From an uncultured Clostridia bacterium (GTDB lineage: Bacteria; Bacillota; Clostridia; TANB77; CAG-508), in assembly GCA_944386325.1 (NCBI GenBank), contig CALXAP010000002.1:63030-127029 (forward strand): a DNA stretch of 64,000 nt. The letters are read 5' to 3'. Positions 1 to 12,233 of the stretch are shown in pieces. Made by a program: the position numbers and the translations under genes. Within the stretch, counting starts at the first letter, position 1. Each line of letters opens with the position of its first letter. The notes below the pieces were generated by a model. It worked only from the letters and a program-made list of their open reading frames with translations, made no database searches and was not told the DNA's origin.

Positions 1-893
1 TCATAATTATCATCCCATCCAATCAATACAACATCATGATTTGGTGTTACATCTTTATTATTACAATAATATGCTAATCCCCCTGGTGCGGCTGAATATA
101 TATCATAATAATAATAATGTGTTGTAGTATAAGAAGATCCTCCACCCTGGTAATGCCTTACATTATAACTACCTAATACATTAAATTGAGTTTTATATCT
201 GTATTTAAAATAACTATCTGCTCTATATATCTTTGAAGCAACTCCACCATATTTCAATATATGTTCTTTTATATTTTGCCTATTTTCCATAACTTCTGCT
301 GGTGTATACATTGTTGTATCTCTATCCCATACATATGTAATTCCATTTACATCATATTTATACATGTTTGGAAATTTTACATATTCTTCTACCTTTGTTG
401 ATGGGGTTTTTCCTTGTATTGTACTTAAACTTACTTTATTTAAATTATTTTCAAACTTCATTTCATTTTCTGTTATTGGTCCTCTTCCACTTGTTATATA
501 TCCTAGGGCTACTTGCATATTTCCTCCTGACCCTAAGTTTCTATAATGCGGATTTGGTGTTCCTTCATTTGTTGAGTTCATTGCTGTTGAATAATCCATA
601 TGTCTCATTGAAAAATCTCCACCTAAGCCTGTTCCATTAAACTCTAGCAGTCTTGATGCTACTAATGCCCAGTTTTCATTTGTTGAGCCATATGTTTTAT
701 CTGTTATATATTTATATACTCTTAAATCGAAAAATCCTGGTGCTCCTAATGCTTTATCTACTAGTAAGGAATCTACTGTTTCTATATTATCTATATTTCT
801 AAATTCATTTTCTTGTGCAAATGCTTTTCCTGTTACTAATAAACTAAGCATAATAGACAAAAATACTACTTTTTTCTTTGTGCTAGACTTCAT
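1..893 (-). CDS. secreted papain-like (C1-type) peptidase-domain protein. Only the N-terminal part is in the window; the ORF runs off the window start
   Basis: Minus-strand ORF with ATG at 891-893 and signal peptide MKSSTKKKVVFLSIMLSLLVTGKAFA, open down to position 1. The last residues in the window, NKDVTPNHDVVLIGWDDNY, resemble the papain/cathepsin-B His loop (GHAIRILGWG). The expected Cys-motif region reads GSTNENWALVAS, so the catalytic Cys is not confirmed. Confidence 0.4.
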   Translation of the reverse strand, partial: MKSSTKKKVVFLSIMLSLLVTGKAFAQENEFRNIDNIETVDSLLVDKALGAPGFFDLRVYKYITDKTYGSTNENWALVASRLLEFNGTGLGGDFSMRHMDYSTAMNSTNEGTPNPHYRNLGSGGNMQVALGYITSGRGPITENEMKFENNLNKVSLSTIQGKTPSTKVEEYVKFPNMYKYDVNGITYVWDRDTTMYTPAEVMENRQNIKEHILKYGGVASKIYRADSYFKYRYKTQFNVLGSYNVRHYQGGGSSYTTTHYYYYDIYSAAPGGLAYYCNNKDVTPNHDVVLIGWDDNY

Positions 894-1475
894 TTAATTG
901 CCTCCTTTCTTCTTTTTATATATAACAACACCTATAATAGCTAATACAATAATCACAATAGCTATTGCTCCAATAATATAAAATTTATTATAGTACTTTT
1001 GTGTTTTTAGCTCTATACTTCCATCTATTCCATTTATATCTTGATTACCATCTGTTGATTGAGCTTGATTAATAGATATATTTGTACTTTCTACTTCTAT
1101 ATTATCTTTAGCTTTTAAAGTTATTTGAAAAACAGATTCATTTTCCTTTGTTTGACTATTTCTTTCTAGTATCAATTTATTATTATCTGGATTAAATAAT
1201 AATCCTCCCCATTGTCCTACTGCTTTTACATCACTTGTTTCAATATTCTCAAAAACATTATTATCATAAGATATGCTTGCTAATAATAAATCTATTCCCT
1301 CATTTGGTGTATCAATATTTTGGATACTTGCTGTTAAAACTATAGTTTCTCCTGGTTTTACTATATCTTTATCAGATTCAAGTTTCATTTCAAATCCACT
1401 TGCATTAACTATACTTAAAGTAATTAACATGGTTACAATAAAAGTAATAGAGCCTACAAACAATAATCTTTTCAC
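894..1475 (-). CDS. membrane-anchored cohesin-domain-like surface protein
   Basis: 193 aa with an N-terminal signal peptide. The segment VKPGETIVLTASIQNIDTPNEGIDLLLASISYDNNVFENIE has the spacing and character of type-I cohesin domains (VKPGDTV...GI...YDPNVLE). The C-terminus has a TM helix and a KKKK tail. Confidence 0.5.
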   Translation of the reverse strand: MKRLLFVGSITFIVTMLITLSIVNASGFEMKLESDKDIVKPGETIVLTASIQNIDTPNEGIDLLLASISYDNNVFENIETSDVKAVGQWGGLLFNPDNNKLILERNSQTKENESVFQITLKAKDNIEVESTNISINQAQSTDGNQDINGIDGSIELKTQKYYNKFYIIGAIAIVIIVLAIIGVVIYKKKKGGN

Positions 1476-1878
1476 ATTATCACCTCACTATATATAATAG
1501 TAATATACCTTTATAAATCATTATAACTTACAAGAAAATATAATCAACATAACTTAAATCTTGTGTAATTGAATAAAATCCTATTTTTTATTACGGATTT
1601 TTTATATTTAAGAAAATCTAATTTAAATATTACATTTTCTTAACATTTTATATTTTTCTACATATATTAATAAATTTGTTTAGGGAAATATGTTTGATTT
1701 GTAATTTTATTTAAAATCAAACATATTAATTCTCCATTTATAATATTATTCTATTCCTAATATTTGTTTTCTTAATAAAGACACATTATGTTATTGTTGT
1801 TTGTCCATTTTCATTTATGTCTTCTTTTACTATTACCAGATATTCTACTTATTCATCTATTTCTGCTTCTTTTGTATT

Positions 1879-4800
1879 CTATTCTTTTTTATGACTTTTT
1901 CTTTTAATCATTACAATTATTCCTGCTATTATAATAAGTATTAATGCTCCTGCTACATAATATTTTGCAATTTCTCCTCCTAATGGTTTAGTTATATTAA
2001 TTTTTCTTGCTTGAGTATTATCAACTTCATTATTATCGCTATTTGGTACATAATTTCCTGGTATTCCTCTGTATGCTCTTCTTCCTGCTTCATTACTTCT
2101 TTGAACAATTTCTAAACAATTTTGGAATGATAAAGTTGCATTATCATCTTGCGGTGATATTACTTTACTTAGCACTATATACCCAACTATTTCTGTCTGA
2201 CCGCCTTCTTGTGCTTCTTTACTACCTATTGGATATAATTCTACTCTTAATCCATCTGTTTGCAATATTTGTAAGTTTTGCTCTTCTACTGCTTCTAATA
2301 CATTATCAGCAACTTTATTTGCTTGTGTAGTTTCTATTCTTTCCCATATATCTCCATTTTCTTCTGCTTTTTGTTCTTCTGGTTTATAAACAAAATTGCT
2401 ACTAATGTATTGATATACCCAATCAGCTTGTGTTGTAATAGTTTCATCACTTGCACCTTCTACATAATTGCTCATTTTATCTATCTCGCCAGTATTTCTT
2501 ATTCTAACTAGATATTTAACACGGATTTCTGCACCATGCATAATTTCCTCATCCATATATACTGAAATTGGAACTTTTTCTTCTTCTTTATCTAAACCAT
2601 TAACATTTTTATTAACACCTTTTTCTGTATCAACTATAATCTGTCCATCACTTAATTTTACTTGTATACCTGCTACTTCTTCTTCTAGACTCAATTCTGC
2701 TTTTGGTCTTTCTCTTAAACCTAGATTTACTTGTTCTACTTTATCTTTTAATACATTATTAGGAACAAAATTAACAGATTTCGTCTGTGCAGACATCTTT
2801 GTTTCTTCTGCTAATTTTCTAATTGCTTCTGTTTTTTGCTCTCCTTCCTTCATATTTCTTATACCTTCTACATCTAGCATTAATCCTAATTCTAGGTCAA
2901 ATGTACTAAATTTATCCATTTGTGCTATTCTTTCATCTTGATTATCTTTACCATAACTTCTATCCTCTTTTATAATACATTCTTCTAAAATTTGTTCATA
3001 TATTTTACCAACTATATCATTATACATATTTTCTGTATTAATTCTATATACTTTTCCTCTTCTTGGATTTGATTCTGTACCAAAAATCTGTTCAGAATCC
3101 TTTGTTAATATTGTAATTAAATCAATATTATTATCATCTAACTCTTCAATTTCTTTAATAACATCTTCATTTGTCTCTTCTGTTGGTCTACCATCTGTAA
3201 TTAAAATAATTATTTTCTTTCTACTATTATTGCTATATTCTGAAGACATTAAATTTATTGCTTTTTGTATACTTGTTTCACCTTCAGAAGTTAAACCTCT
3301 AATTGTATTTTGTAAATCTGTTTGATTGTCTCCTAATTGACCTAGTACCGCCGCTTCACTATTATAAGCAACTAGACCTATTTTTACTCCTGATAATTGT
3401 TCATTTAATTTTCTAACCAATTCTATTGCTGCTCTTTTTTCTTGATTAATTGGCTCTCCACTCATACTATTTGAAATATCTAATCCAAGCATTATTTCTA
3501 CATCAGAATAATTATTAGTTGCATCTGTATCTTTATATATATCTTCTGTTGCAACAGCTTGATAATCTTGACCATTATATTTTAAATTGTGTTTTAGTTG
3601 TTCTTCTTCACCGTAAATAAATTCCACATGATAATTTCCTGCAGATAATCTACTAAATCTATATCCACCATTTAATTCTTCATTATTACTTATAGATAAT
3701 TGTCTGCCTGTTCTTGCCTCATCTACTTTTTTAGTTAAACTTGCCCCTGTTTGTGGATTTGTAAATGTTTCATACAATTCTACTCTTACATAATCTACTA
3801 GTGGCTCATTTCTTTGTCTTATTCCATCTCCAACTATTTGATTATTTGATAAAGTAACTGTATTATTTCCATGTCTTAAATCATCCCAAACATTTCCTTC
3901 TATTGTATTTCCATAACGATTATTTTCTTCACTATCATCATCCATAACTAATCTTAGATTTGGTGATCTGTCTTCATCATCTTCATATGTACTTTTATCT
4001 GTATTTGGATTCAAATTACCTGGTCTAGAATTTTCATCAATTAAACCAACTACACTTCCATCATCTTTATTAAATGTTCTGTAACCGTTAATTTCTGCTA
4101 TATTTGCATTATCACCTTCTAATATAACTGCATTATTGTTTTTATTTATTTTAAATATAATGTGTAACTCTATATATTTTCCATTTCCTACTTCTAGATT
4201 TTCTAAACTTTGTGTATACATTTTATTATATTCTGAATATTGATTACTTTGTCCATATTTTGAATTTTGACTCCAATCAACTTTTATCTTATTTTCATCC
4301 TGAACTGTTTCACTTTCTGTAATATTTTCAGATTTCACAACAGCCCATGATGTCATTTCAATATCTCTGTAGCTATCATTACTATAAATCAAATTTTTAC
4401 TATAATAATCTGCCAATTCGGTTATTTTTGCTATATCATTTTCACCAGTATTTCTAATAATCATCATATAATCTAAATAAACTTCTAATTCGCAATCATT
4501 TGCATTTGCCCATACAGACGCTAAACTATCATCCCATCTCCATTCATAATCAGCTCTATTAACATATTGAGTATAATCTGATATATCTTGTATCTGATCT
4601 TTATTTCTCAAATTTTTCTCATTATAAGCAAACCTTTGTGTCATTCCTTTTATAGAAAATGTAGATTCATATACATCTAAAGTTAGATTTTCATTTGTTT
4701 TCTCTCTTTCTGATAATCCTAAATCGATATTTTTTTCATCTTCTATCATCATATATTCAACTTTGTTAATTGTAAATTTTTCAGTTAAAGGATAATATAT

Positions 4801-7800
4801 ATTACTGCTCGCTGTATTAGTAGCAATTTCATATTGTTGTCTAGAAACTTCATTTTCATTTCTAGTTACAATTTTACTATTGTTACCTTCTTGTCTATAC
4901 TCTAAATTAGTTGTTGTTCCATCTGTTCCAATTGCTCCATTTGGAGTAATTTCATAATAACGATTATTTAAATTCTGTCTATTCTCTTTTGTCTCTTCTG
5001 CCTTTGAATTATTAATATATTTTTCATCATCTGGATTATTCTTATAATCTGTTACATTTCCATTTATTAAAAATTTTGTAGTCCTATATGTTTGTCCATC
5101 ATATTTGTATTCTATTTCATATAAACCAGGTCTTATATTTTCAAAACGATAGTTTCCATTTTCATCTGTGTAAACAGGATTTTGACTTGTTAATTTTGTC
5201 GTTGGAGTAGTTTCATCTTTTTTATATAATGTAACTTTTACACCTTTTATTTTCTTTTCATTATTCTCGTTAATTCCATTAGATATCATTTCATTTTGGT
5301 CATTCCACACATTTCCTTCAAAATTCATAGTTAACCTAATTTTTCCATCAATATCTAATTCTTGTATGTGTTTTTTATATTCTTTTTTTACCCAATCTAC
5401 TTCTATTAATTTTTGCGAATCTACTCTTCCTAAAGTAACTTTATCTGCAATTAAATAATATGTATGTCCTATAATATGTGCATCTTGCATTCCATGAGGA
5501 CAACTTCTTCCTCCTGGGCATCTTTCTGTTCTATATCCAGCTTTCCATTCTACTTCATTATAAGTTCCTTCCAAAATGCTATACTTAGCATCTATATTTA
5601 ATTCTTGATGTTCTATTTCTATTTTACTAATCTCTCTTACATTTTCATTTGCTTCATCATCTATCACAAAATAAAACTCTTCATTTGGATAAGGATATGG
5701 ATATTCTTCATATGTTTCTGCTCTATTTTGTAATTTTTTATTTTCATCATATTCAATATTCCATGTATTTGATGGTATTATATTACCATCCTGATCATAT
5801 ATTCTAATTTCTTTTATTCCACTAAACTCAATTTTTTCTCCACCTTTTTCTGTATAACTCCTTAAATAGTCTACTTTATATGGACCTATAATAATTTTTT
5901 TAGATTCTACATTGTATCCAACTACAGTATCTAATTTCTCCTGACTTGTTTTATATCCACCTTGTCCATCTATTTGTTTTCTGAATTTAGCATATTCTTT
6001 TGCTTCTATAGATATTTTATTATCTGGAGCTGAAGCCCCCTCATTTATACCTATTGCATACATTGCCAATTGACTTTGTGATTGTAAACTATTGTTTTCA
6101 TCTAAGAAAGATAATATATATGCTTCTTCATCTGTTGCATTTCCCTCTTTTCCTTCTCTTATAGGTGGAATTGTTTCAAAATATTTTCCAATAGAATGAC
6201 TCTTTGTATCTGTATAAATATTTTTTAAATTCGTACCATCTTCAACATACTTTTCACCTATTATTTGACCTCTATATGGATTTTTTACATACATCTTAAA
6301 GTCTCCGCTTTCCACTGTTGCATCAAGTTGTGTTCCATTACTCATTGCTGGAATATGTACCCCATTTGCAATACAATATAAATATTTATCTTGATCTACT
6401 TCCTCTTCTGGTATAAATCTTCCACCATCTGGCTCTAATTTTTTAGAAATCATAAATCCTAATCTTGCAGGCTCTATTTGTGTTGGATATTTACCTTCTG
6501 TTGTATTAAGTGTAAAATACACACCATGATGACTATAACTTATTCTGTCATATTCTAGGCCCTCTGGTATATTTATATTATAAGTAAATTTATGAGTTTC
6601 ACCTTGACTCATAGTATAATTGTTTAATACTATAAGAAAGCTTTTTACTTTGCTAAAATCCCTAGGTGTCATTGTCCATCCATTCGATGAATCATTTAAA
6701 TCTTTAGTAGCATTTATTTTTTCTGAATAATACACTTTCGCTACACTTCTTAATATTGGAGGTACTGTAATACCTTCATTTGTCATTGTTGTACTGTAAT
6801 CTGATCCTATGTCTTTTCCATTAATAACATATTTTGAGCCTTCTGTTGGTATTATACCTAATATTGAAATCTCACTAATTACTCCAGAATAGTTATTTGT
6901 AATATTAACCTCTACTGTAGCAGTTCTTTGATCTTTTGCAACTTCAGCCACCCTAGGAGATACAGCAATACTTCCTTCATCATCATAGTTTAAACCTCTC
7001 TGCCCTGTTACTAGTGAATTTGATGCAATCAATGCAATTGTTCTTTCTGTTGTTCCTATCTTTTCATCTATATTATTATTTTCATTTACATCATAGATAT
7101 CACTTACTATGTCTGGTTCATAATCTACACCAATTTCATTATATGTGTACAATTCTAATTCTTCATCTTGAGTTGGCGAACCTGGATTTGGTGTTATTGT
7201 ACAATCTAGATATATTAGGAAATATTGTGGGTTATCATTTTTTGTTTTTATTTTAACAAAAACACTTCCCTCACTATAGTATTTATAATAATTTTCTATT
7301 TTTACATTAGGGTTATCTGTTGTAATATTTTTTATTTCCACATCCGCTATATCTGGTGGAAATTTTAATAAAAATTGTCCATTTTTCCATGGAGATATGA
7401 TATCAGTATATGAATCAAACTTATTTTTTGGTACACCGATTCTTATTTGCATATCTTGTGATTTTTGTGTAGATACAACTGTTTCATCACTATAATAATC
7501 ATTGTTATCTATATCCATACCAACCAAAGATATTGGATATATATATCTTGCTGTATCATCAGTACTTAAATGCCACTCTCCTGCATATGCTTCTACATAA
7601 CTTTCTATGTAAGAAAATGTATCAAATACTTCTTTAGAATAAGTGTTTGTAATATATGTATCATCTAATTCTTTTGTATTATATACATAAAAATATGAGT
7701 TTGTATTATATAATTTACTCGTTTCCACCCTTATGTGTTTGACTGGTTTTTTATACCAATAAGGATTATTTTCACTATACCTATTCATATTTTGTATATT

Positions 7801-9315
7801 AAAAGTTACTAATAATTCATTAGTATCATCATTATATACATTTATCCAACCATCATTTCCAAGCATATTTATATTATATGGTATATATATTGCAGCATGT
7901 TTACTGAAATTTTCCATACTTATTTGTTGTCCATCTGTAGTAATGATTACATCTGATTTCTTTTTCTCTCCATTTGGAGTCTCTTTTAATACTACACCAT
8001 TTTCATAAACTCCACCATCGCCATCAAATCTCCATTCTACTGGATAATAATCTCCTGTTTCATTTTTTGATAAATTGTTATATATTCTTGCTGGCTTTTC
8101 TTTTGATACATAATACATACTATAAATATCATAACTATATAAACTTGATAAATAATAACCTACATCTATGTATAAATATGGTCTTACTATTGGCACAGGT
8201 CTTGGTCTAAATAAATTTAAATTTATTGTAGCTTGTACTTCATTAGATTTATATGGGTTCTGAAATTCCCCACTTGGATTATTGTACGAATTTATATAAA
8301 CTTTTACTGGAACTTGCACATCTTGTTCACCCAAAACCTTATTATATGCTTCCATAGGATATGTTACATTTAATCTTACATACTTATAATAAGAATAATC
8401 ACTAAACCCTCCTGTTTTTTCAATAACAAAATTGCCTGTGTTGCTATCATATGTTACTTTACTATAACTGTCTGTTGTTGTTACACTTAAAGCACTATAT
8501 CCATTTAACTTTGGTATTGTTCCTTCTATATGCATATCTTTAGTCTCTAATTGCCTTATATTCTCTCTTATAGATATCTCAAAATCTACTTCTATGACAT
8601 TTTCTTCTTCATTTACCATATCATCTTCATAATTATATTGATTAGTATCGCTAGAATCCCATTGAATTTTATTTGTACCATACCAATCGACTTGGAAATT
8701 TACTGTCTTTTGTATTGGTGTTTCTTTAGTTGTACCATCCGGTAAAGTTTCTACATGTATACCTGTTAAAGTTATAGAATTTATTTTTGAATATTTGTCT
8801 CTATTTAGCGGTGTACTTGGTGATTTTACTATACCAGATATGAGCATATGTGTTCCATTTTCTAAATTATTAAATTCTATATTACTTATATTACTTCCTA
8901 TATAATTATCTTTTATTTGAGTATCTGCTGCTAATTGTGTTGTTAATTGGAAATTTCCACCATAGTTAGTACCATTAACAGTTATTCTTCCATCTTTTAA
9001 ATAACCATTTTCAACTACTTCTAACTCCATATATAAAGTATCTGATTCTCCTATTTCTTTACATGTTCCTCTTACCTTATCTGCAATTCCATCATTGTTC
9101 AAATCTTTGAAAAAATATGAATCAAACTTAACATATTGAGAATTCGTAGATTCTTCTCCTATTTGTACTTGAGGGTATGTCATTGCTAAAATATTTTCTG
9201 GTCTACTATTTATAATCATATTATTTATTTGTTTATAGCATAATGGTATTAGAGCTATTATTATCATTATAACTCCTAATATCATAATTATTTTTTTATA
9301 TTTCTTTATTTTCAT
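1879..9315 (-). CDS. giant (2478 aa) cell-surface adhesin-like protein with a vWA domain and Cna-B-type repeats; C-terminal TM anchor
   Basis: Single uninterrupted ORF with an N-terminal signal/TM (MKIKKYKKIIMILGVIMIIIALIPLCY). MIDAS-type vWA motif DISNSMSG...ILITDG. Prealbumin/Cna-B-like segments (VKVTLYKKDETTP...NGNYRFENIRPGLYEIEY; GGYRFSRLSAGNYHVEF). C-terminal hydrophobic helix plus KRKSHKKE tail. No LPXTG seen. Confidence 0.75.
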   Translation of the reverse strand: MKIKKYKKIIMILGVIMIIIALIPLCYKQINNMIINSRPENILAMTYPQVQIGEESTNSQYVKFDSYFFKDLNNDGIADKVRGTCKEIGESDTLYMELEVVENGYLKDGRITVNGTNYGGNFQLTTQLAADTQIKDNYIGSNISNIEFNNLENGTHMLISGIVKSPSTPLNRDKYSKINSITLTGIHVETLPDGTTKETPIQKTVNFQVDWYGTNKIQWDSSDTNQYNYEDDMVNEEENVIEVDFEISIRENIRQLETKDMHIEGTIPKLNGYSALSVTTTDSYSKVTYDSNTGNFVIEKTGGFSDYSYYKYVRLNVTYPMEAYNKVLGEQDVQVPVKVYINSYNNPSGEFQNPYKSNEVQATINLNLFRPRPVPIVRPYLYIDVGYYLSSLYSYDIYSMYYVSKEKPARIYNNLSKNETGDYYPVEWRFDGDGGVYENGVVLKETPNGEKKKSDVIITTDGQQISMENFSKHAAIYIPYNINMLGNDGWINVYNDDTNELLVTFNIQNMNRYSENNPYWYKKPVKHIRVETSKLYNTNSYFYVYNTKELDDTYITNTYSKEVFDTFSYIESYVEAYAGEWHLSTDDTARYIYPISLVGMDIDNNDYYSDETVVSTQKSQDMQIRIGVPKNKFDSYTDIISPWKNGQFLLKFPPDIADVEIKNITTDNPNVKIENYYKYYSEGSVFVKIKTKNDNPQYFLIYLDCTITPNPGSPTQDEELELYTYNEIGVDYEPDIVSDIYDVNENNNIDEKIGTTERTIALIASNSLVTGQRGLNYDDEGSIAVSPRVAEVAKDQRTATVEVNITNNYSGVISEISILGIIPTEGSKYVINGKDIGSDYSTTMTNEGITVPPILRSVAKVYYSEKINATKDLNDSSNGWTMTPRDFSKVKSFLIVLNNYTMSQGETHKFTYNINIPEGLEYDRISYSHHGVYFTLNTTEGKYPTQIEPARLGFMISKKLEPDGGRFIPEEEVDQDKYLYCIANGVHIPAMSNGTQLDATVESGDFKMYVKNPYRGQIIGEKYVEDGTNLKNIYTDTKSHSIGKYFETIPPIREGKEGNATDEEAYILSFLDENNSLQSQSQLAMYAIGINEGASAPDNKISIEAKEYAKFRKQIDGQGGYKTSQEKLDTVVGYNVESKKIIIGPYKVDYLRSYTEKGGEKIEFSGIKEIRIYDQDGNIIPSNTWNIEYDENKKLQNRAETYEEYPYPYPNEEFYFVIDDEANENVREISKIEIEHQELNIDAKYSILEGTYNEVEWKAGYRTERCPGGRSCPHGMQDAHIIGHTYYLIADKVTLGRVDSQKLIEVDWVKKEYKKHIQELDIDGKIRLTMNFEGNVWNDQNEMISNGINENNEKKIKGVKVTLYKKDETTPTTKLTSQNPVYTDENGNYRFENIRPGLYEIEYKYDGQTYRTTKFLINGNVTDYKNNPDDEKYINNSKAEETKENRQNLNNRYYEITPNGAIGTDGTTTNLEYRQEGNNSKIVTRNENEVSRQQYEIATNTASSNIYYPLTEKFTINKVEYMMIEDEKNIDLGLSEREKTNENLTLDVYESTFSIKGMTQRFAYNEKNLRNKDQIQDISDYTQYVNRADYEWRWDDSLASVWANANDCELEVYLDYMMIIRNTGENDIAKITELADYYSKNLIYSNDSYRDIEMTSWAVVKSENITESETVQDENKIKVDWSQNSKYGQSNQYSEYNKMYTQSLENLEVGNGKYIELHIIFKINKNNNAVILEGDNANIAEINGYRTFNKDDGSVVGLIDENSRPGNLNPNTDKSTYEDDEDRSPNLRLVMDDDSEENNRYGNTIEGNVWDDLRHGNNTVTLSNNQIVGDGIRQRNEPLVDYVRVELYETFTNPQTGASLTKKVDEARTGRQLSISNNEELNGGYRFSRLSAGNYHVEFIYGEEEQLKHNLKYNGQDYQAVATEDIYKDTDATNNYSDVEIMLGLDISNSMSGEPINQEKRAAIELVRKLNEQLSGVKIGLVAYNSEAAVLGQLGDNQTDLQNTIRGLTSEGETSIQKAINLMSSEYSNNSRKKIIILITDGRPTEETNEDVIKEIEELDDNNIDLITILTKDSEQIFGTESNPRRGKVYRINTENMYNDIVGKIYEQILEECIIKEDRSYGKDNQDERIAQMDKFSTFDLELGLMLDVEGIRNMKEGEQKTEAIRKLAEETKMSAQTKSVNFVPNNVLKDKVEQVNLGLRERPKAELSLEEEVAGIQVKLSDGQIIVDTEKGVNKNVNGLDKEEEKVPISVYMDEEIMHGAEIRVKYLVRIRNTGEIDKMSNYVEGASDETITTQADWVYQYISSNFVYKPEEQKAEENGDIWERIETTQANKVADNVLEAVEEQNLQILQTDGLRVELYPIGSKEAQEGGQTEIVGYIVLSKVISPQDDNATLSFQNCLEIVQRSNEAGRRAYRGIPGNYVPNSDNNEVDNTQARKINITKPLGGEIAKYYVAGALILIIIAGIIVMIKRKSHKKE

Positions 9316-9678
9316 TGGTACCCCCTAGCTATATAAAATGCGTTCTACATTTTTATTATTATCTATATTTAATTTTAAAATCTTTATTTTTAAAGTCAAC
9401 ATATCCATTTTTATATAAATACAACATAAATCAACATTTATTTTACGGATTTAATATAATAAATACTTTTATTATCTAATAATATTTTTTTATGACATTT
9501 TTATGAAATAATATTTACAATCTTATTATTTTACTAGGGAAACATACAATTTTTAATCATTCTATTTAATTAACTTTAAAAAGTTTTTTTACATTTTTTT
9601 AACTATTATTTAATCCAAATAATGTTTATATATAATCAAATACATAAAAAAAATAGCCCTATTGAGCTATTCTTTTAA

Positions 9679-10818
9679 TTATAATTTATCTATATCTTTT
9701 TCTAAATCTGACTTTTTCTCATTCATATCTACTAATATTCCAAGTTTCATTAATATTCTTTTGAATACAGAAACTTTACTTGGTTTTAATTCCACTAGAT
9801 TTAAATTTTCCGAAATGGGTGTTTTCTTTATTACACCATGTTCTTTTATATATTCTTTTTTAGCTTCAAACTCTTCCATTTTCTTAATATAATATTTATT
9901 ATAAAAATCGTAATCTGCAGTATAACCAATTATATCTTTAAAATTATATATTCTAGATTTAAAATATTTTAAATCTTCCATTGTTCTAATTTCATTAAAT
10001 TCAGTTTCAAAACATAATTCAATAATAAAATCTTGTGTTTCTATAAAAAGATTTGCAATTTTATCTTTACATTGATCAATCAATTGATTTGTTTGCTTTA
10101 TTTTTCTTTGCCTATTTGTATATTTTACTTCTGTAGTTAAAGTATTTAATAGTGCTTCTAAGGTTAATAATTCATCTACATTTTTCTCAATTTTATAATA
10201 TGCCCTCTTTCCAAATTTAGAGCTAAATGTATTTTTAAATACATCATCACTATATAAAGTACTATGATATAATGGATAATTTCCTGTAAAATACATCATT
10301 TCTTTTAATATTACACATTGTAATGGATAATATTCTGGACTTTCTGTAACTAAGAATAAATCATAATATTTTACTTTATCTATTGGCGCACCACTTGCTG
10401 TTGCAGCCATAAGTTGAACTGCAGCTTCATTTAGCCCCATACCTTTATTTGAACCTTCTGATATATCATACAAACCTAATCTTAATAAATTTCCCTTTTC
10501 ATCTTTTATTTCTTGTAAATAATGTATACACTCATGAATTGCAAACTCCTCTATTTCATCAATAGAAAATTTATCATTAAAATATATAGATTGATTTTTA
10601 TAAAAATACTTTGCAGCTGATGCATCTTCTGGCATTTGAGCAAAATACATCTGCAACCTAGATATTGATATAAATAGATCACTTTCATTTATATTATGTT
10701 CATTAAAAGTTTCATATAATTTATGAGAAATATTTTTAGAAATTTTATTAATTGTAAGTATATCTAGTGGTCTTATATTTGTGATTCCTTCTTTTTTCAA
10801 TACAGATTTTATATTCAT
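9679..10818 (-). CDS. hypothetical protein with an HExxH metallopeptidase-like motif
   Basis: 379-aa ORF containing AIHECIHYLQE (HExxH), with no signal peptide. Possibly related to the ImmA/IrrE (M78) fold, but no HTH partner is present. Confidence 0.45.
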   Translation of the reverse strand: MNIKSVLKKEGITNIRPLDILTINKISKNISHKLYETFNEHNINESDLFISISRLQMYFAQMPEDASAAKYFYKNQSIYFNDKFSIDEIEEFAIHECIHYLQEIKDEKGNLLRLGLYDISEGSNKGMGLNEAAVQLMAATASGAPIDKVKYYDLFLVTESPEYYPLQCVILKEMMYFTGNYPLYHSTLYSDDVFKNTFSSKFGKRAYYKIEKNVDELLTLEALLNTLTTEVKYTNRQRKIKQTNQLIDQCKDKIANLFIETQDFIIELCFETEFNEIRTMEDLKYFKSRIYNFKDIIGYTADYDFYNKYYIKKMEEFEAKKEYIKEHGVIKKTPISENLNLVELKPSKVSVFKRILMKLGILVDMNEKKSDLEKDIDKL

Positions 10819-10928
10819 ATTAACCCCTTTTCTCTTTTGAATACTATAACAATTATTATAACCTAATTGTATTTAAAAACATATTTCATACTTGTTAAAT
10901 TTGTATTACATTTTAATTACAATTACGT

Positions 10929-12233
10929 CTACCTTACACAAAACACCGCATATAGTGGAATTGATTTTATATTATTCTCAAATCCAAAATTTCTAGTTGA
11001 AAATCTTATTCCATATTTAGGTCTATAATATTTCATATACATATTTAAACTAACTGATCTTACATTATTTCCGCTTTTTACCTCTATTGGAATAATTCCA
11101 TCTTCTTCACTATACAAAACAAAATCTATTTCAGCATTTCTATTAGAAGACCAATAATATAGTGATTCACCTTTAGAACTTATTTCTTGTGCTATATAAT
11201 TTTCTGTAATAGCACCTTTATAAAGAAAAGTTCTATCAAGCATTATATCTGTATATCTTATTTCGCTCATACTTGTTAATATTCCTACATCACTTAAATA
11301 TAACTTAAACATATCTTCATCTATATATACTTTAAGCGGTATTTCCATTCTTTTTGATTTATAATTTATTAAAATCATCCTAGATGCTACTAGCCAATCA
11401 ATTGAACTTTCATATTTTCTTTTTCTTCCTGTTTCTTCTACAAAATTATATTGAAAATTCTTATTTTCTTTAGCTAACTGACTAGGAATGTTTTTATATA
11501 TTTTCTCAATTTTAACAGTTTCTAAACTGCTTTTTACATATTTTTGCATATCTGCAATGTACATATCTTTTATATCTGAAAGAATGTGAGAATCGAATTT
11601 TAATATATCTTGATTATTCTCTATAAAATTGTTTACTGCTTCTGGCATACCTCCCACGCACAAATATTTCCTATATAGTTCTATTGCTTTTTCATGAGCA
11701 AAATCAGGCATTTTAGACATTGATTTATAACATTCTTCTATTTTATTTTTTAACATTTCATTACCAGTAGCTATTAAAAATTCTTCAAAATTCATTGGAT
11801 ACATATATTCTATTCTAATTTTTCCAACAGGAAATGAACTTTTAAACCTATTAATTTTAACACCTAACAAACTTCCTGCACATATTATTTTATAGTTTTT
11901 CTCTGATTCATTAAAATATTTAAGTGATACAATAAAATTTTCGCTTACTTGTATTTCATCAAAAAACATTATTGTTTTTTCTATATCTATCTTTTTACCT
12001 ATATATAATTCCAAATTTTCGATAATCTTTGTATCATCAATTGTTTGCTCAAATATATTTCTTACATCATTACTTTTTTCTAAATTAAAATATAAGTATT
12101 GTTCAAAATTTTCTTTAGCAAATTTTTCTAAAATATAAGTTTTTCCAATCTGTCTTGCTCCTACTACCATTAATGGTTTTTTCATTCCAGTTTCTTTCCA
12201 TTCCATTAATTTATTTTCAAATAATCTTTTCAT
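10929..12233 (-). CDS. AAA family ATPase (DUF4143-type, archaeal-ATPase-like)
   Basis: 434 aa. Walker A VVGARQIGKTYIL near the N-terminus. Overall pattern matches the widespread AAA+DUF4143 ATPase family. Confidence 0.65.
   Translation of the reverse strand: MKRLFENKLMEWKETGMKKPLMVVGARQIGKTYILEKFAKENFEQYLYFNLEKSNDVRNIFEQTIDDTKIIENLELYIGKKIDIEKTIMFFDEIQVSENFIVSLKYFNESEKNYKIICAGSLLGVKINRFKSSFPVGKIRIEYMYPMNFEEFLIATGNEMLKNKIEECYKSMSKMPDFAHEKAIELYRKYLCVGGMPEAVNNFIENNQDILKFDSHILSDIKDMYIADMQKYVKSSLETVKIEKIYKNIPSQLAKENKNFQYNFVEETGRKRKYESSIDWLVASRMILINYKSKRMEIPLKVYIDEDMFKLYLSDVGILTSMSEIRYTDIMLDRTFLYKGAITENYIAQEISSKGESLYYWSSNRNAEIDFVLYSEEDGIIPIEVKSGNNVRSVSLNMYMKYYRPKYGIRFSTRNFGFENNIKSIPLYAVFCVR

Follow-up and report, generated by a model that had tools for sequence, protein, structure and literature searches.

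The cysteine protease Cwp84 of C. difficile is held by CWB2 wall-binding repeats, and the non-cellulosomal cohesin and dockerin modules of C. perfringens sit on secreted glycoside hydrolases, linking the enzymes to one another. Cwp84 matures the S-layer protein SlpA (PMC5817068). Single cohesins carried on a transmembrane helix have been described in Lachnoclostridium sp. MSJ-17, H. luporum and C. cibarium, as have sortase-anchored scaffoldins in Ruminococcus, and for proteins that combine one cohesin with a C-terminal transmembrane helix a function as anchoring scaffoldins has been proposed in other Clostridia (PMC11557425).

The locus described here lies in a 64-kb stretch of DNA (the window) and resembles Cwp84 (4ci7, 4d59/4d5a) in encoding a secreted C1A protease followed by a lectin-like domain (PF18560) and a predicted non-covalent surface tether. 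Unlike in Cwp84, anchoring is assigned to a type I dockerin, and the operon also encodes a conserved, apparently dead paralogue with six Big_2 domains as its stalk; the locus showed no S-layer gene. With the C. perfringens modules (2vo8, 2jh2, 2w1n), which were closest to the model of the cohesin protein Coh1 (TM 0.74-0.80 relative to target), it would share cohesin-dockerin pairing outside cellulose degradation, although its own cohesins belong to dedicated anchor and adaptor proteins and the predicted cargo is a protease pair. Wall- or membrane-anchored single cohesins, a cohesin-dockerin adaptor and one sortase-anchored scaffoldin are features in common with cellulosome scaffoldins (e.g. 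C. thermocellum OlpC, 4dh2). Glycoside hydrolases, CBMs, SLH domains and multi-cohesin scaffoldins are all missing from the locus, which is therefore not a cellulosome. The host is an uncultured member of the Clostridia, known from metagenomes alone.

Two independent surface modules, a giant adhesin and the start of a cohesin-dockerin operon, probably make up the region, and every function assigned to them below is a prediction. An earlier note on this DNA had proposed a surface-protein locus of three genes; all three are on the minus strand at the coordinates given there, as seen in the open reading frames of the window, and they do encode a vWA/SdrD_B giant, a cohesin with a membrane helix and a secreted papain-family homologue. 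The features are as follows.

1..893, minus strand: pseudo-C1 gene, first 297 of 1220 codons, covering the signal peptide and most of an apparently dead papain-family (C1) domain
894..1475, minus strand: Coh1, 193 aa (Pfam Cohesin, 31 bits; cut-off 24.1)
1476..1878, minus strand: intergenic region between the giant gene and Coh1 (sequence inspection and promoter scan)
9315..1879, minus strand: giant surface protein gene, 2478 aa (open reading frame; Pfam)
6436..9210, minus strand: conserved N-terminal Ig-like module of the giant, residues 36-960 (AlphaFold2 and Foldseek)
5071..5310, minus strand: SdrD_B/prealbumin-like domain of the giant, residues 1336-1415 (Pfam SdrD_B, E=3.6e-14)
3088..3495, minus strand: vWA domain of the giant, residues 1941-2076 (Pfam VWA, E=9.9e-18; VWA_2, E=3.7e-16)
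1882..2613, minus strand: widely conserved C-terminal module of the giant, approximately residues 2235-2478, beta-rich with conserved motifs SN..GRR and PGNxxP, then the tail (per-column information content)
1882..1992, minus strand: tail of the giant, with TKPLG at 2442-2446, spacer GEIAKYY, helix 2454-2470 and basic KRKSHKKE

The giant protein and its insertion at the locus

From N- to C-terminus the giant consists of a helix (residues 9-25), Ig-like domains (approximately 36-960), an unassigned stretch that includes a Cys/His-rich patch at residues 1264-1284, the SdrD_B domain, the vWA domain and the C-terminal module with its tail. Residues 36-980 were modelled with AlphaFold2 (pLDDT 84.8) as an all-beta chain of Ig-like beta-sandwiches, for which the best Foldseek PDB matches were the Ig-like domains of PrgB (8beg, E=1e-16), integrin alpha legs and the C-terminal domains of antigen I/II, with low whole-chain TM-scores of 0.1-0.2 as expected for a multi-domain chain. 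Based on this model, residues 36-960 are likely a stalk or binding region. A vWA domain combined with several Cna-B repeats had been proposed, and the vWA part was supported by the MIDAS motif DISNS (residues 1946-1950, nt 3466-3480) and by PDB matches to BatB-like vWA proteins. The repeats were reduced to a single SdrD_B stretch at 1336-1415, overlapped by Pfam SpaA and CarboxypepD_reg matches, and a weaker second stretch near 1866-1919 that missed the cut-off in a scan of its own.

More than 110 giant Clostridia proteins have residues 1-960 only in common with the giant, while residues 2090-2478 only are common to a second large family with LPPFG-type tails. The giant would thus be a mosaic fibrillar adhesin made of an Ig-like N-terminal module, SdrD_B, a ligand-binding MIDAS vWA domain and a C-terminal module from that second family. 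It is similar to Gram-positive fibrillar adhesins (PrgB, 8beg; CLIPPER/DUF11, CnaB and SdrD_B stalks, PMC12617251) in its great length, mostly beta-sandwich fold, MIDAS vWA domain, N-terminal export signal and C-terminal anchor, and differs from those with isopeptide-type stalks in being a two-family mosaic with a TKPLG/LPPFG tail rather than LPXTG.

The same five operon genes were found at the same chromosomal site in related genomes (loci L007-L013), where Coh1 identity falls to 45% and the giant gene is absent. Since the operon is syntenic in genomes lacking it, the giant is a lineage-specific, self-contained ~8-kb insertion (window positions ~1694-9683), present in this lineage only; from position 1693 of the window the sequence is again homologous to L007, which has no giant gene. 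The intergenic region contains a 13-bp perfect AT-rich inverted repeat at approximately 1688-1726 and a promoter-like site at 1547..1520, and no Rfam riboswitch was identified in it.

C-terminal tails of the giant and of Coh1

The giant ends ...ITKPLGGEIAKYY-VAGALILIIIAGIIVMI-KRKSHKKE and, as the earlier note had held, is without a canonical LPXTG, the tail having no xPxTG motif. When giant residues 2090-2478 were searched against 1.84 billion representatives, E<=1e-3 was reached by at least 692 protein clusters and E<=1e-10 by 358. Query and target were aligned as far as their C-termini, and the best-matched stretches were mostly query residues ~145-385 of 389. The family consensus was ILPPFGE-x3-YY-helix-IKKKVL, with ITKPLGGEIAKYY at the same place in the giant, and an HMM of 145 family tails (consensus ...AERVIILPPFGENRIYYILG...GGIILIKKKVLKK) scored the giant at 54.1 bits. 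Position 3 was Pro and position 5 was Gly in 149 of 150 tails. A YY pair followed the motif in 68 of 145, TKPLG was the form in 9 of 145 representatives, and about 14% had xPPTG, including one LPPTG. Neither Pfam nor NCBIfam has a model for the LPPFG-type tail. Judged by sequence, the giant tail is a diverged TKPLG member of this LPXTG-like 'LPPFG' family, which has the pentapeptide, hydrophobic helix and basic cluster of the LPXTG signal (TIGR01167/PF00746) at the extreme C-terminus but near-invariant Pro3 and Gly5 instead of Pro2 and Thr4.

The giant would be held at the cell surface through this tail, comprising the motif, often YY, a Gly-containing helix and a KKKVL-type basic cluster, and a retained or slowly processed membrane anchor is the favoured fate of its TKPLG tail. 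That Pro and Gly are invariant speaks for a recognition site, which weakens the case for a plain membrane anchor. A tentative possibility is that the TKPLG and LPPFG tails are substrates of a sortase or other transpeptidase, with cleavage ahead of the invariant Gly and covalent attachment of the protein to the wall. The motif sits exactly at the place of LPXTG in the same three-part layout, L-P-P-F-G and L-P-x-T-G differ at position 4 only, and the xPPTG forms and the constancy of Pro3 and Gly5 point the same way. Two members without the consensus Phe (TPPTG and TKPYG) narrowly pass the TIGR01167 LPXTG_anchor model (16.4-16.5 against 15.9), and the genome uses sortase signals, as a third cohesin of the operon carries LPYTG. 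However, neither TIGR01167 nor Gram_pos_anchor (PF00746) was among the matches of the giant tail, no sortase gene adjoined any of four family members in the neighbourhoods inspected, and the 64-kb window contained no sortase signature (TLxTC). We know of no sortase that takes Phe or Leu for the scissile Thr, and no paper on an LPPFG-like motif was found in a full-text literature search. Were these tails sortase substrates after all, the 'non-sortase' premise of the earlier note would be wrong.

That premise belonged to a proposal that the giant and Coh1 share a new C-terminal signal, KYY before the helix, served by one dedicated enzyme. Both proteins do end in a literal KYY, a helix and a basic tail, with Coh1 reading ...LKTQKYYNK-FYIIGAIAIVIIVLAIIGVVIY-KKKKGGN. 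KYY occurs 10 times in the 14,241 aa of the window's long minus-strand open reading frames, giving a chance near 0.006 of finding it within ~8 residues of the second helix, for a pattern that was spotted post hoc. Down to 70% identity Coh1 orthologues keep YY, and the giant and cohesin tails both match NCBIfam GG_III-CTERM weakly (21.0 and 10.6 bits, cut-off 22). The K, however, varies in closer orthologues (QNYYNKF at 85-88% identity) and KYY is lost altogether at about 45% (LKVQKTGMNVW). Coh1 also lacks the invariant xxPxG, its tail scored 10.7 bits on the giant-tail HMM, at the level of ordinary LPXTG tails (10-12) and far from the giant, and the other tail-family members had no GG_III-CTERM match at E<=1. 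Most Coh1-carrying genomes are without the giant, and a rhombosortase-like or other processing enzyme, which had been suggested as a check, had no candidate within the 64-kb window. The orthologue comparison largely refutes a shared KYY signal, which we regard as very unlikely. A conserved non-canonical signature does survive in the tail of the giant, with YY as a part of it, but 'non-sortase' is unproven because the family signature aligns with LPXTG itself (LPPFG, TPPTG, TKPLG).

The cohesin-dockerin operon

A metagenome contig (L001), 100% identical to the window across an 11,475-bp overlap, runs on past base 1 and supplied the missing part of the pseudo-C1 gene. The operon order is Coh1, pseudo-C1 (1220 aa), a cohesin-dockerin adaptor (289 aa), a presumably active C1 peptidase (651 aa) and a cohesin with LPYTG (282 aa).

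Coh1 comprises a signal peptide, one cohesin module (~27-158), a 6-residue spacer, a helix at 165-186 and KKKKGGN. Its AlphaFold2 model (pLDDT 83.5) best matched the C. perfringens cohesin 2vo8 (TM 0.80 relative to target), then 2jh2 and 2w1n, together with the type I cohesin of OlpC, and these matches and the Pfam score identified what had been called cohesin-like as a genuine cohesin followed by a membrane helix and basic tail. It would act as a membrane-proximal anchoring cohesin; only ~6 residues separate fold and helix, which would place it under the wall, where access to it may be limited.

The pseudo-C1 ATG directly follows the Coh1 stop codon. Beyond the window the protein continues with a lectin-like domain (Pfam Lectin_like 5e-20), six Big_2 domains (1.5e-96) and a dockerin (Dockerin_1 6e-11). 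The 297 residues within the window had no Pfam match at E<=0.1 and aligned weakly with Cwp84 (4d59, E=0.0017), matching its His loop, but strongly with the active paralogue downstream (E=4e-46). GSTNENW is at residues 69-75 and NHDVVLIGWDD at 285-295; Asn74 (nt 672-674) replaces the catalytic Cys, opposite Cys95 of the paralogue, the Gln is Tyr68 and the triad Asn is Asp, while His286 (nt 36-38) is kept. The Cys to Asn, Gln to Tyr and LNS to DAD changes were found in all five orthologues examined. The earlier note had described a secreted papain-like protein in which the catalytic Cys was not found, and on these residues the domain is predicted to be catalytically dead. A hydrolase with another nucleophile, or a decaying pseudogene, is extremely unlikely. 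His286 and its loop are retained and the sole Cys of the 297 residues, C277, lies nine residues upstream of His286, but C277 aligns with a Ser of the active paralogue and not with the catalytic position, and three of four catalytic or oxyanion residues were replaced jointly by conserved substitutions. The 1220-codon reading frame was intact at all loci examined, and dN/dS was 0.17-0.29 (0.105-0.15 for the active paralogue), a sign of purifying selection, which excludes decay.

The 651-aa enzyme (Peptidase_C1 1.4e-10, Lectin_like 2.4e-27, Dockerin_1 4.4e-8) matched Cwp84 (4ci7) at 1.4e-21, with its Cys aligned to the C116A position of the crystal construct. In the adaptor, Dockerin_1 (3e-11) was accompanied by a Cohesin match of 2.6e-4 (21.6, below the cut-off of 24.1). 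The 282-aa protein, a cohesin paralogue by BLASTP (5e-12 and 9e-16) that ends SSLPYTG, a helix and KYRNME, had no Pfam match at E<=0.01 in this strain. The cohesin assignments of the 289- and 282-aa proteins are therefore putative, drawing on paralogy and a Cohesin match recorded for the orthologue at L012.

The dockerin partners that had been sought for the cohesin lie directly downstream of the window end, three in number, one of them on the partial pseudo-C1 gene itself. It is unlikely that these modules do not pair, the dockerins binding cohesins elsewhere or only stabilising through calcium and the clustering being incidental. The helices of the adaptor and active-protease dockerins are nearly identical while the three cohesins are mutually only 24-35% identical, and orphan cohesins and dockerins were reported in other genomes (PMC11557425). 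However, three cohesins and three dockerins are kept in the same order down to 45% Coh1 identity, the Coh1 stop abuts the start of a dockerin-bearing gene, and no other dockerin-like calcium loop was found within the 64-kb window. Pairing within the operon is thus preferred; given their near-identity, the adaptor and active-protease dockerins may compete for one cohesin, and the order of assembly is not deducible.

In the proposed mechanism three single-cohesin proteins, Coh1 on the membrane via its helix, the soluble cohesin-dockerin adaptor and the LPYTG sortase substrate with its long Pro/Thr/Asn-rich linker, would capture the three dockerin-bearing proteins in a calcium-dependent manner. 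One cargo would be the active Cwp84-like C1 cysteine protease with its lectin-like domain, and another its paralogue, which has lost the active-site Cys, Gln and Asn and keeps the lectin-like domain on a six-Big_2 stalk. Through the operon the cell probably exposes a Cwp84-like cysteine protease on its surface, together with the catalytically dead twin. The likely role would be to present the protease non-covalently, alongside a dead-protease subunit for binding, at two different depths within the envelope.

The operon and its surroundings

GC content in the window was about 25% and the minus strand carried nearly all genes. The neighbouring genes were chromosomal housekeeping genes including addB, uracil-DNA glycosylase (UDG), translation genes and a TetR/ABC pair, and bases 1-12000 had no match in the plasmid and phage collections searched by megablast. 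The genes of interest, a giant surface protein, a cohesin protein (Coh1) and a papain-like partial gene, were arranged as follows.

10818..9679, minus strand: 379-aa HExxH protein, with a terminator-like hairpin after it
9315..1879, minus strand: open reading frame of the giant, 2478 aa
403 bp: spacer between the giant and Coh1
1475..894, minus strand: open reading frame of Coh1, 193 aa
893..1, minus strand: partial gene, with its ATG directly after the Coh1 stop codon, exiting the window

Searching Rfam upstream of the giant and Coh1 gave chance sub-threshold matches only, with no riboswitch such as the c-di-GMP class found for C. difficile adhesins. When the truncated papain-like fragment was used as a query, the only homologues were two short metagenome fragments. 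An exact-sequence look-up of Coh1 led to metagenome contigs including L001, which was 100% identical to the window over an 11,475-bp overlap and was therefore usable as a stand-in for the sequence beyond the edge. The remainder of the partial gene, which the earlier note had called for, was obtained in this way as part of a 1220-aa protein, and L001 carried the following products after Coh1, in this order.

1220 aa (the partial gene): dead C1 domain, lectin-like domain (PF18560), six Big_2 domains and a type I dockerin
289 aa: cohesin-like module and dockerin
651 aa: Peptidase_C1 domain, lectin-like domain and dockerin
282 aa: cohesin paralogue with a Pro/Thr/Asn-rich linker, then SSLPYTG, a helix and a basic tail

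The three dockerins matched PF00404 at E=6.3e-11, 3.2e-11 and 4.4e-8, all over the cut-off of 22.9, and each of them showed both calcium-binding loops (DxNxDGxxxxxD) with a helix after each loop. The earlier note suggested looking elsewhere in the genome for a dockerin partner of the cohesin; candidate partners do exist, but directly downstream, and the partial gene itself carries one. The rest of the 64-kb window had no sortase signature (TLxTC), LPXTG-like tail or dockerin-like calcium loop.

The identification of the 193-aa protein as a cohesin was confirmed. Coh1 was above the Pfam threshold for PF00963 (31 bits vs 24.1, E=3.4e-7, profile positions 5-137 of 139) and its AlphaFold2 model (pLDDT 83.5) had the nine-stranded jelly-roll fold of cohesins. 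Every one of the top 26 Foldseek matches in the PDB was a cohesin, led by 2vo8 (TM 0.80 relative to the target, rmsd 2.7 Å), and the model superposed on the non-cellulosomal cohesins of C. perfringens as well as on type I cohesins. Other Clostridia have been described as having single-cohesin scaffoldins with a helix anchor (PMC11557425).

Coh1 and the four genes after it, five in all, recurred with unchanged order and chromosomal position (addB, UDG, oxidoreductase, HExxH protein) in L007, a locus from a related metagenome-assembled genome labelled uncultured Clostridia bacterium, and the set was also present in more distant metagenome lineages (L008-L013) in which Coh1 was only 45% identical. 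Neither the giant nor any homologue of it was found in L007-L013. Alignment with L007 placed the difference at window positions ~1694-9683, where roughly 8 kb in the window corresponded to 225 bp in L007. Membership of the giant in the cohesin-dockerin system was considered and rejected, since Pfam gave no cohesin or dockerin match in it and it was absent from every other operon-bearing locus; the giant and the operon are therefore two modules that happen to adjoin in this lineage.

Several further features of this region were recorded. An AT-rich, perfectly matched inverted repeat of 13 bp (ATATGTTTGATTT ... AAATCAAACATAT) was located between the giant and Coh1 at about 1688-1726, the point where homology to L007 resumes (window 1693); it could act as a weak terminator or be a trace left by the 8-kb insertion. 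Fragments of a second Lectin_like–Big_2–Dockerin gene (343/243-aa and 54-aa pieces) were found in L012 (8225-9665) and L013 (8525-9665), occupying the interval from the HExxH gene to Coh1 where the giant sits in the window; insertions or duplications seem to recur at this site. The HExxH protein itself (9679-10818, minus strand) had the motif FAIHECIHYLQ and no signal peptide, with no Pfam or NCBIfam match at E<=0.1 and no PDB match at E<=1; a gene of 378-402 aa was directly upstream of the operon in every related locus, whether or not the giant was present. Between the oxidoreductase and HExxH genes was an AAA_14/DUF4143 ATPase gene (10929-12233, minus strand), also present in L001 but not at this place in L007, L008 and L012, and thus a second lineage-specific insertion adjoining the operon.

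The predicted active protease and its paralogue

The 651-aa protein featured the motif DQGSSKSCW and a His loop, NHQVTIIGWDDNY, and passed PF00112 (42.1 bits vs 20.7). It matched C. difficile Cwp84 at 1.4e-21, with its cysteine opposite the mutated Cys116 of the crystal construct. Both paralogues had the Cwp84-like layout of a C1A domain followed by a lectin-like domain (PF18560, E=5e-20 and 2.4e-27). CWB2 repeats gave no match, the C-terminus being a dockerin instead, and the protein is therefore not Cwp84 proper.

The signal peptide, the His loop NHDVVLIGWDD and the sequence GSTNENW at the expected cysteine motif, all described previously for the partial gene, were confirmed. Pfam gave no match to this part, PF00112 included, Cwp84 matched its His loop weakly, and the first 606 residues of the 1220-aa protein matched no PDB sequence at E<=0.01. 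Homology to the C1 fold was evident from the 651-aa paralogue (33% identity, E=4e-46). In that alignment the catalytic cysteine of (Q)GxCGSCW, Cys95 in the paralogue, was replaced by Asn74, the oxyanion-hole glutamine by Tyr68 and the triad asparagine (LNS) by aspartate (DAD), while His286 was retained; two additional Tyr-rich insertions flanked the His strand. The catalytic cysteine was thus missing as had been claimed, nor was it displaced, since C277, the sole cysteine of the part within the window, aligned with a serine. Judged from these residues, the partial gene encodes a predicted non-peptidase homologue and not an enzyme of the C1 family.

The catalytic replacements were kept in 5 orthologues and were identical in four other loci, down to 64% domain identity, and dN/dS was 0.17-0.29 for the dead domain vs 0.105-0.15 for the active domain. 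The conserved replacements and the dN/dS of the dead domain indicate a maintained pseudo-enzyme rather than a decaying gene.

Domains and C-terminal tail of the giant

The vWA domain proposed for the giant was borne out by a Pfam VWA match (E=9.9e-18, residues 1941-2076) and an intact MIDAS motif (DxSxS...T...D), with DISNS at 1946-1950 and GETSIQ and ITDG in the translation. The several Cna-B repeats described with it were a generous count at the sequence level, as a single SdrD_B/prealbumin-like domain was clear (1336-1415) and a second was weak. Residues 36-980 were modelled by AlphaFold2 (pLDDT 84.8) as a chain of Ig-like beta-sandwiches, the best PDB matches being PrgB Ig-like domains, integrin legs and antigen I/II C-domains. 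A Cys/His-rich patch, ERCPGGRSCPHGMQDAHIIGH, at residues 1264-1284 (window 5464-5526) could be a metal site, judging from its composition; it sits within a ~370-residue stretch (960-1330) that had no Pfam match and that, among the homologues of the full-length giant found, was common only to the close orthologues P0026-P0028 (>=87% identical).

The absence of LPXTG from the giant was upheld, as was its ending in a helix and basic tail. The hydrophobic helix VAGALILIIIAGIIVMI is followed by KRKSHKKE, the combination of helix and basic cluster of sortase substrates, and the pentapeptide position reads TKPLG. No [LISNP]Px[TSAG][GASN] motif was present in the last 60 residues, and TIGR01167 and PF00746 were not among the matches of the tail at E<=10. 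A search of the last 389 residues against 1.84 billion representative proteins gave at least 692 matches at E<=1e-3, with alignments reaching the extreme C-terminus of both partners and a tail consensus of ...PTEVDSDKAERVIILPPFGENRIYYILG...LIGGIILIKKKVLKK. We refer to these as the LPPFG-type tail family, which was defined in this analysis rather than curated, by a PGNxxP...E.D..A...I.I module followed by xxP[FTLY]G and, after a short spacer, by a Gly-containing helix and then a K-rich end. The giant had this organization and scored 54.1 bits on an HMM of 145 tails. The Pro and Gly of the pentapeptide were present in 149/150 family tails, with LPPFG in 76, TPPTG in 13 and the giant's own TKPLG in 9. 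NCBIfam NF041738 (GG_III-CTERM) was rejected as a name for a tail shared with Coh1, because the giant (21.0 bits, with Coh1 at 10.6) was below the cut-off of 22 and six other family tails were also unmatched at E<=1.

The earlier note had taken KYY, just before the helix in both the giant and Coh1, as a hint of a shared sorting or anchoring signal independent of sortase. The KYY is present in both sequences, but it was not kept among Coh1 orthologues, being QNYY in some close orthologues and LKVQKTGMNVW in the 45% clade, where the helix and K-rich end were the only features kept. The Coh1 tail scored 10.7 bits on the tail HMM, as did canonical LPXTG control tails (10-12), and it is therefore not a member of the LPPFG-type family; its end is predicted to be a plain C-terminal membrane helix. 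In the giant, a tyrosine pair near the helix is a real family feature, found after the pentapeptide glycine in 68/145 tails, mostly 4-5 residues on, but the idea of a signal shared with Coh1 was not supported.

The tail of the giant may itself be a sortase-type substrate, against the non-sortase reading of the earlier note. The motif sits where LPXTG would be, Phe in place of Thr is the only departure of its consensus from LPXTG, a minority of tails read xPPTG, and two members without the consensus Phe (TPPTG and TKPYG) narrowly passed TIGR01167. Against this, the curated LPXTG anchor models did not match the giant's own tail, there was no sortase gene in the window or beside the four family members whose surroundings were examined, and no description of an LPPFG-type tail or such a motif was found in the searchable full-text literature. 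A tentative and rather doubtful proposal is that the tails of the giant and the at least 692 clusters are an undescribed Clostridia sorting signal (...PGNxxP..E.D..AE.V.ILPPFGE-x3-YY-helix(..GGI..)-IKKKVL) with a dedicated enzyme, separate from the LPXTG route of this genome that the LPYTG cohesin would use. Such an enzyme would be either a sortase subclass whose scissile position tolerates Phe or Leu, or a processing enzyme unrelated to sortases.

A complete C-terminal anchor was present in ~73 homologues of the giant's N-terminal module (P0029-P0145). About 16 of these were canonical xPxTG, while ~50 had a conserved '...DNxxxAxxxIxIxTG' followed by a helix and basic tail, which is a second widespread LPXTG-like variant without the Pro. 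In other genomes this tail type was also found on the gene just upstream of an LPPFG-type gene. In L015 (3669-15553), L017 (349-10597), L018 (822-16361) and L019 (2056-12281) the LPPFG-tail gene came directly after a second giant gene with CLIPPER and SdrD_B domains that ended in ...VTGN or ...KTGE and a helix. Three small divergently transcribed genes (47-48, 120-135 and 103-136 aa) were located upstream in L015, L016 and L018, in what is a recurring gene cluster.

The LPPFG tail family is large, LPXTG-like and covered by no curated model. Should such tails be processed, the present annotation of many clostridial surface proteins as plain membrane proteins would be wrong.

Proposed arrangement on the cell envelope

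The components of the locus are of known kinds, namely cohesin, dockerin, a Cwp84-like C1A and lectin-like protease, Big_2 stalks, a vWA fibrillar adhesin and an LPXTG anchor. The pairing of cohesin with dockerin is familiar mostly as what holds the cellulosome together, with dockerin-bearing glycoside hydrolases assembled on a multi-cohesin primary scaffoldin. The locus, in contrast, had a C1 peptidase and its dead paralogue as sole cargo and one cohesin per scaffold; with no CAZyme cargo and no multi-cohesin scaffoldin in the locus, it is not a cellulosome. Non-cellulosomal cohesins are known from C. perfringens (PDB entries), and dockerin-bearing papain-like modules are reportedly known in Ruminococcus flavefaciens. 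An operon with three differently anchored cohesins, a Cwp84-like protease and a dead paralogue was not found described in the searchable literature.

All functions given below are inferred from what was observed, namely domain architectures, synteny, purifying selection and lost catalytic residues. The three cohesins would capture the three dockerins in a calcium-dependent manner. With ~6 residues between its fold and its helix, Coh1 would lie almost on the membrane, and the best-guess pairing, from the adjoining genes, would be with the dead protease on its long stalk of six Big_2 domains, which could reach across the wall. A linker of ~100 residues would let the LPYTG cohesin present cargo at the surface of the wall, and the cohesin-dockerin protein would be an adaptor. 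The adaptor and active-protease dockerins had near-identical recognition helices and that of the dead protease differed, which suggests two specificities without fixing the wiring. By analogy with Cwp84, the active protease may process other surface proteins (PMC5817068).

The operon, compact and conserved, appears to fix a Cwp84-like protease to the cell envelope through cohesin-dockerin pairing, together with its deliberately kept dead paralogue, using anchors at two depths, one on the membrane and one on the wall. It would offer a simple natural system for the wiring of non-cellulosomal cohesin-dockerin sets, for the contribution of a pseudo-protease to a surface protease and for the placement of proteins at defined depths in Gram-positive cells.
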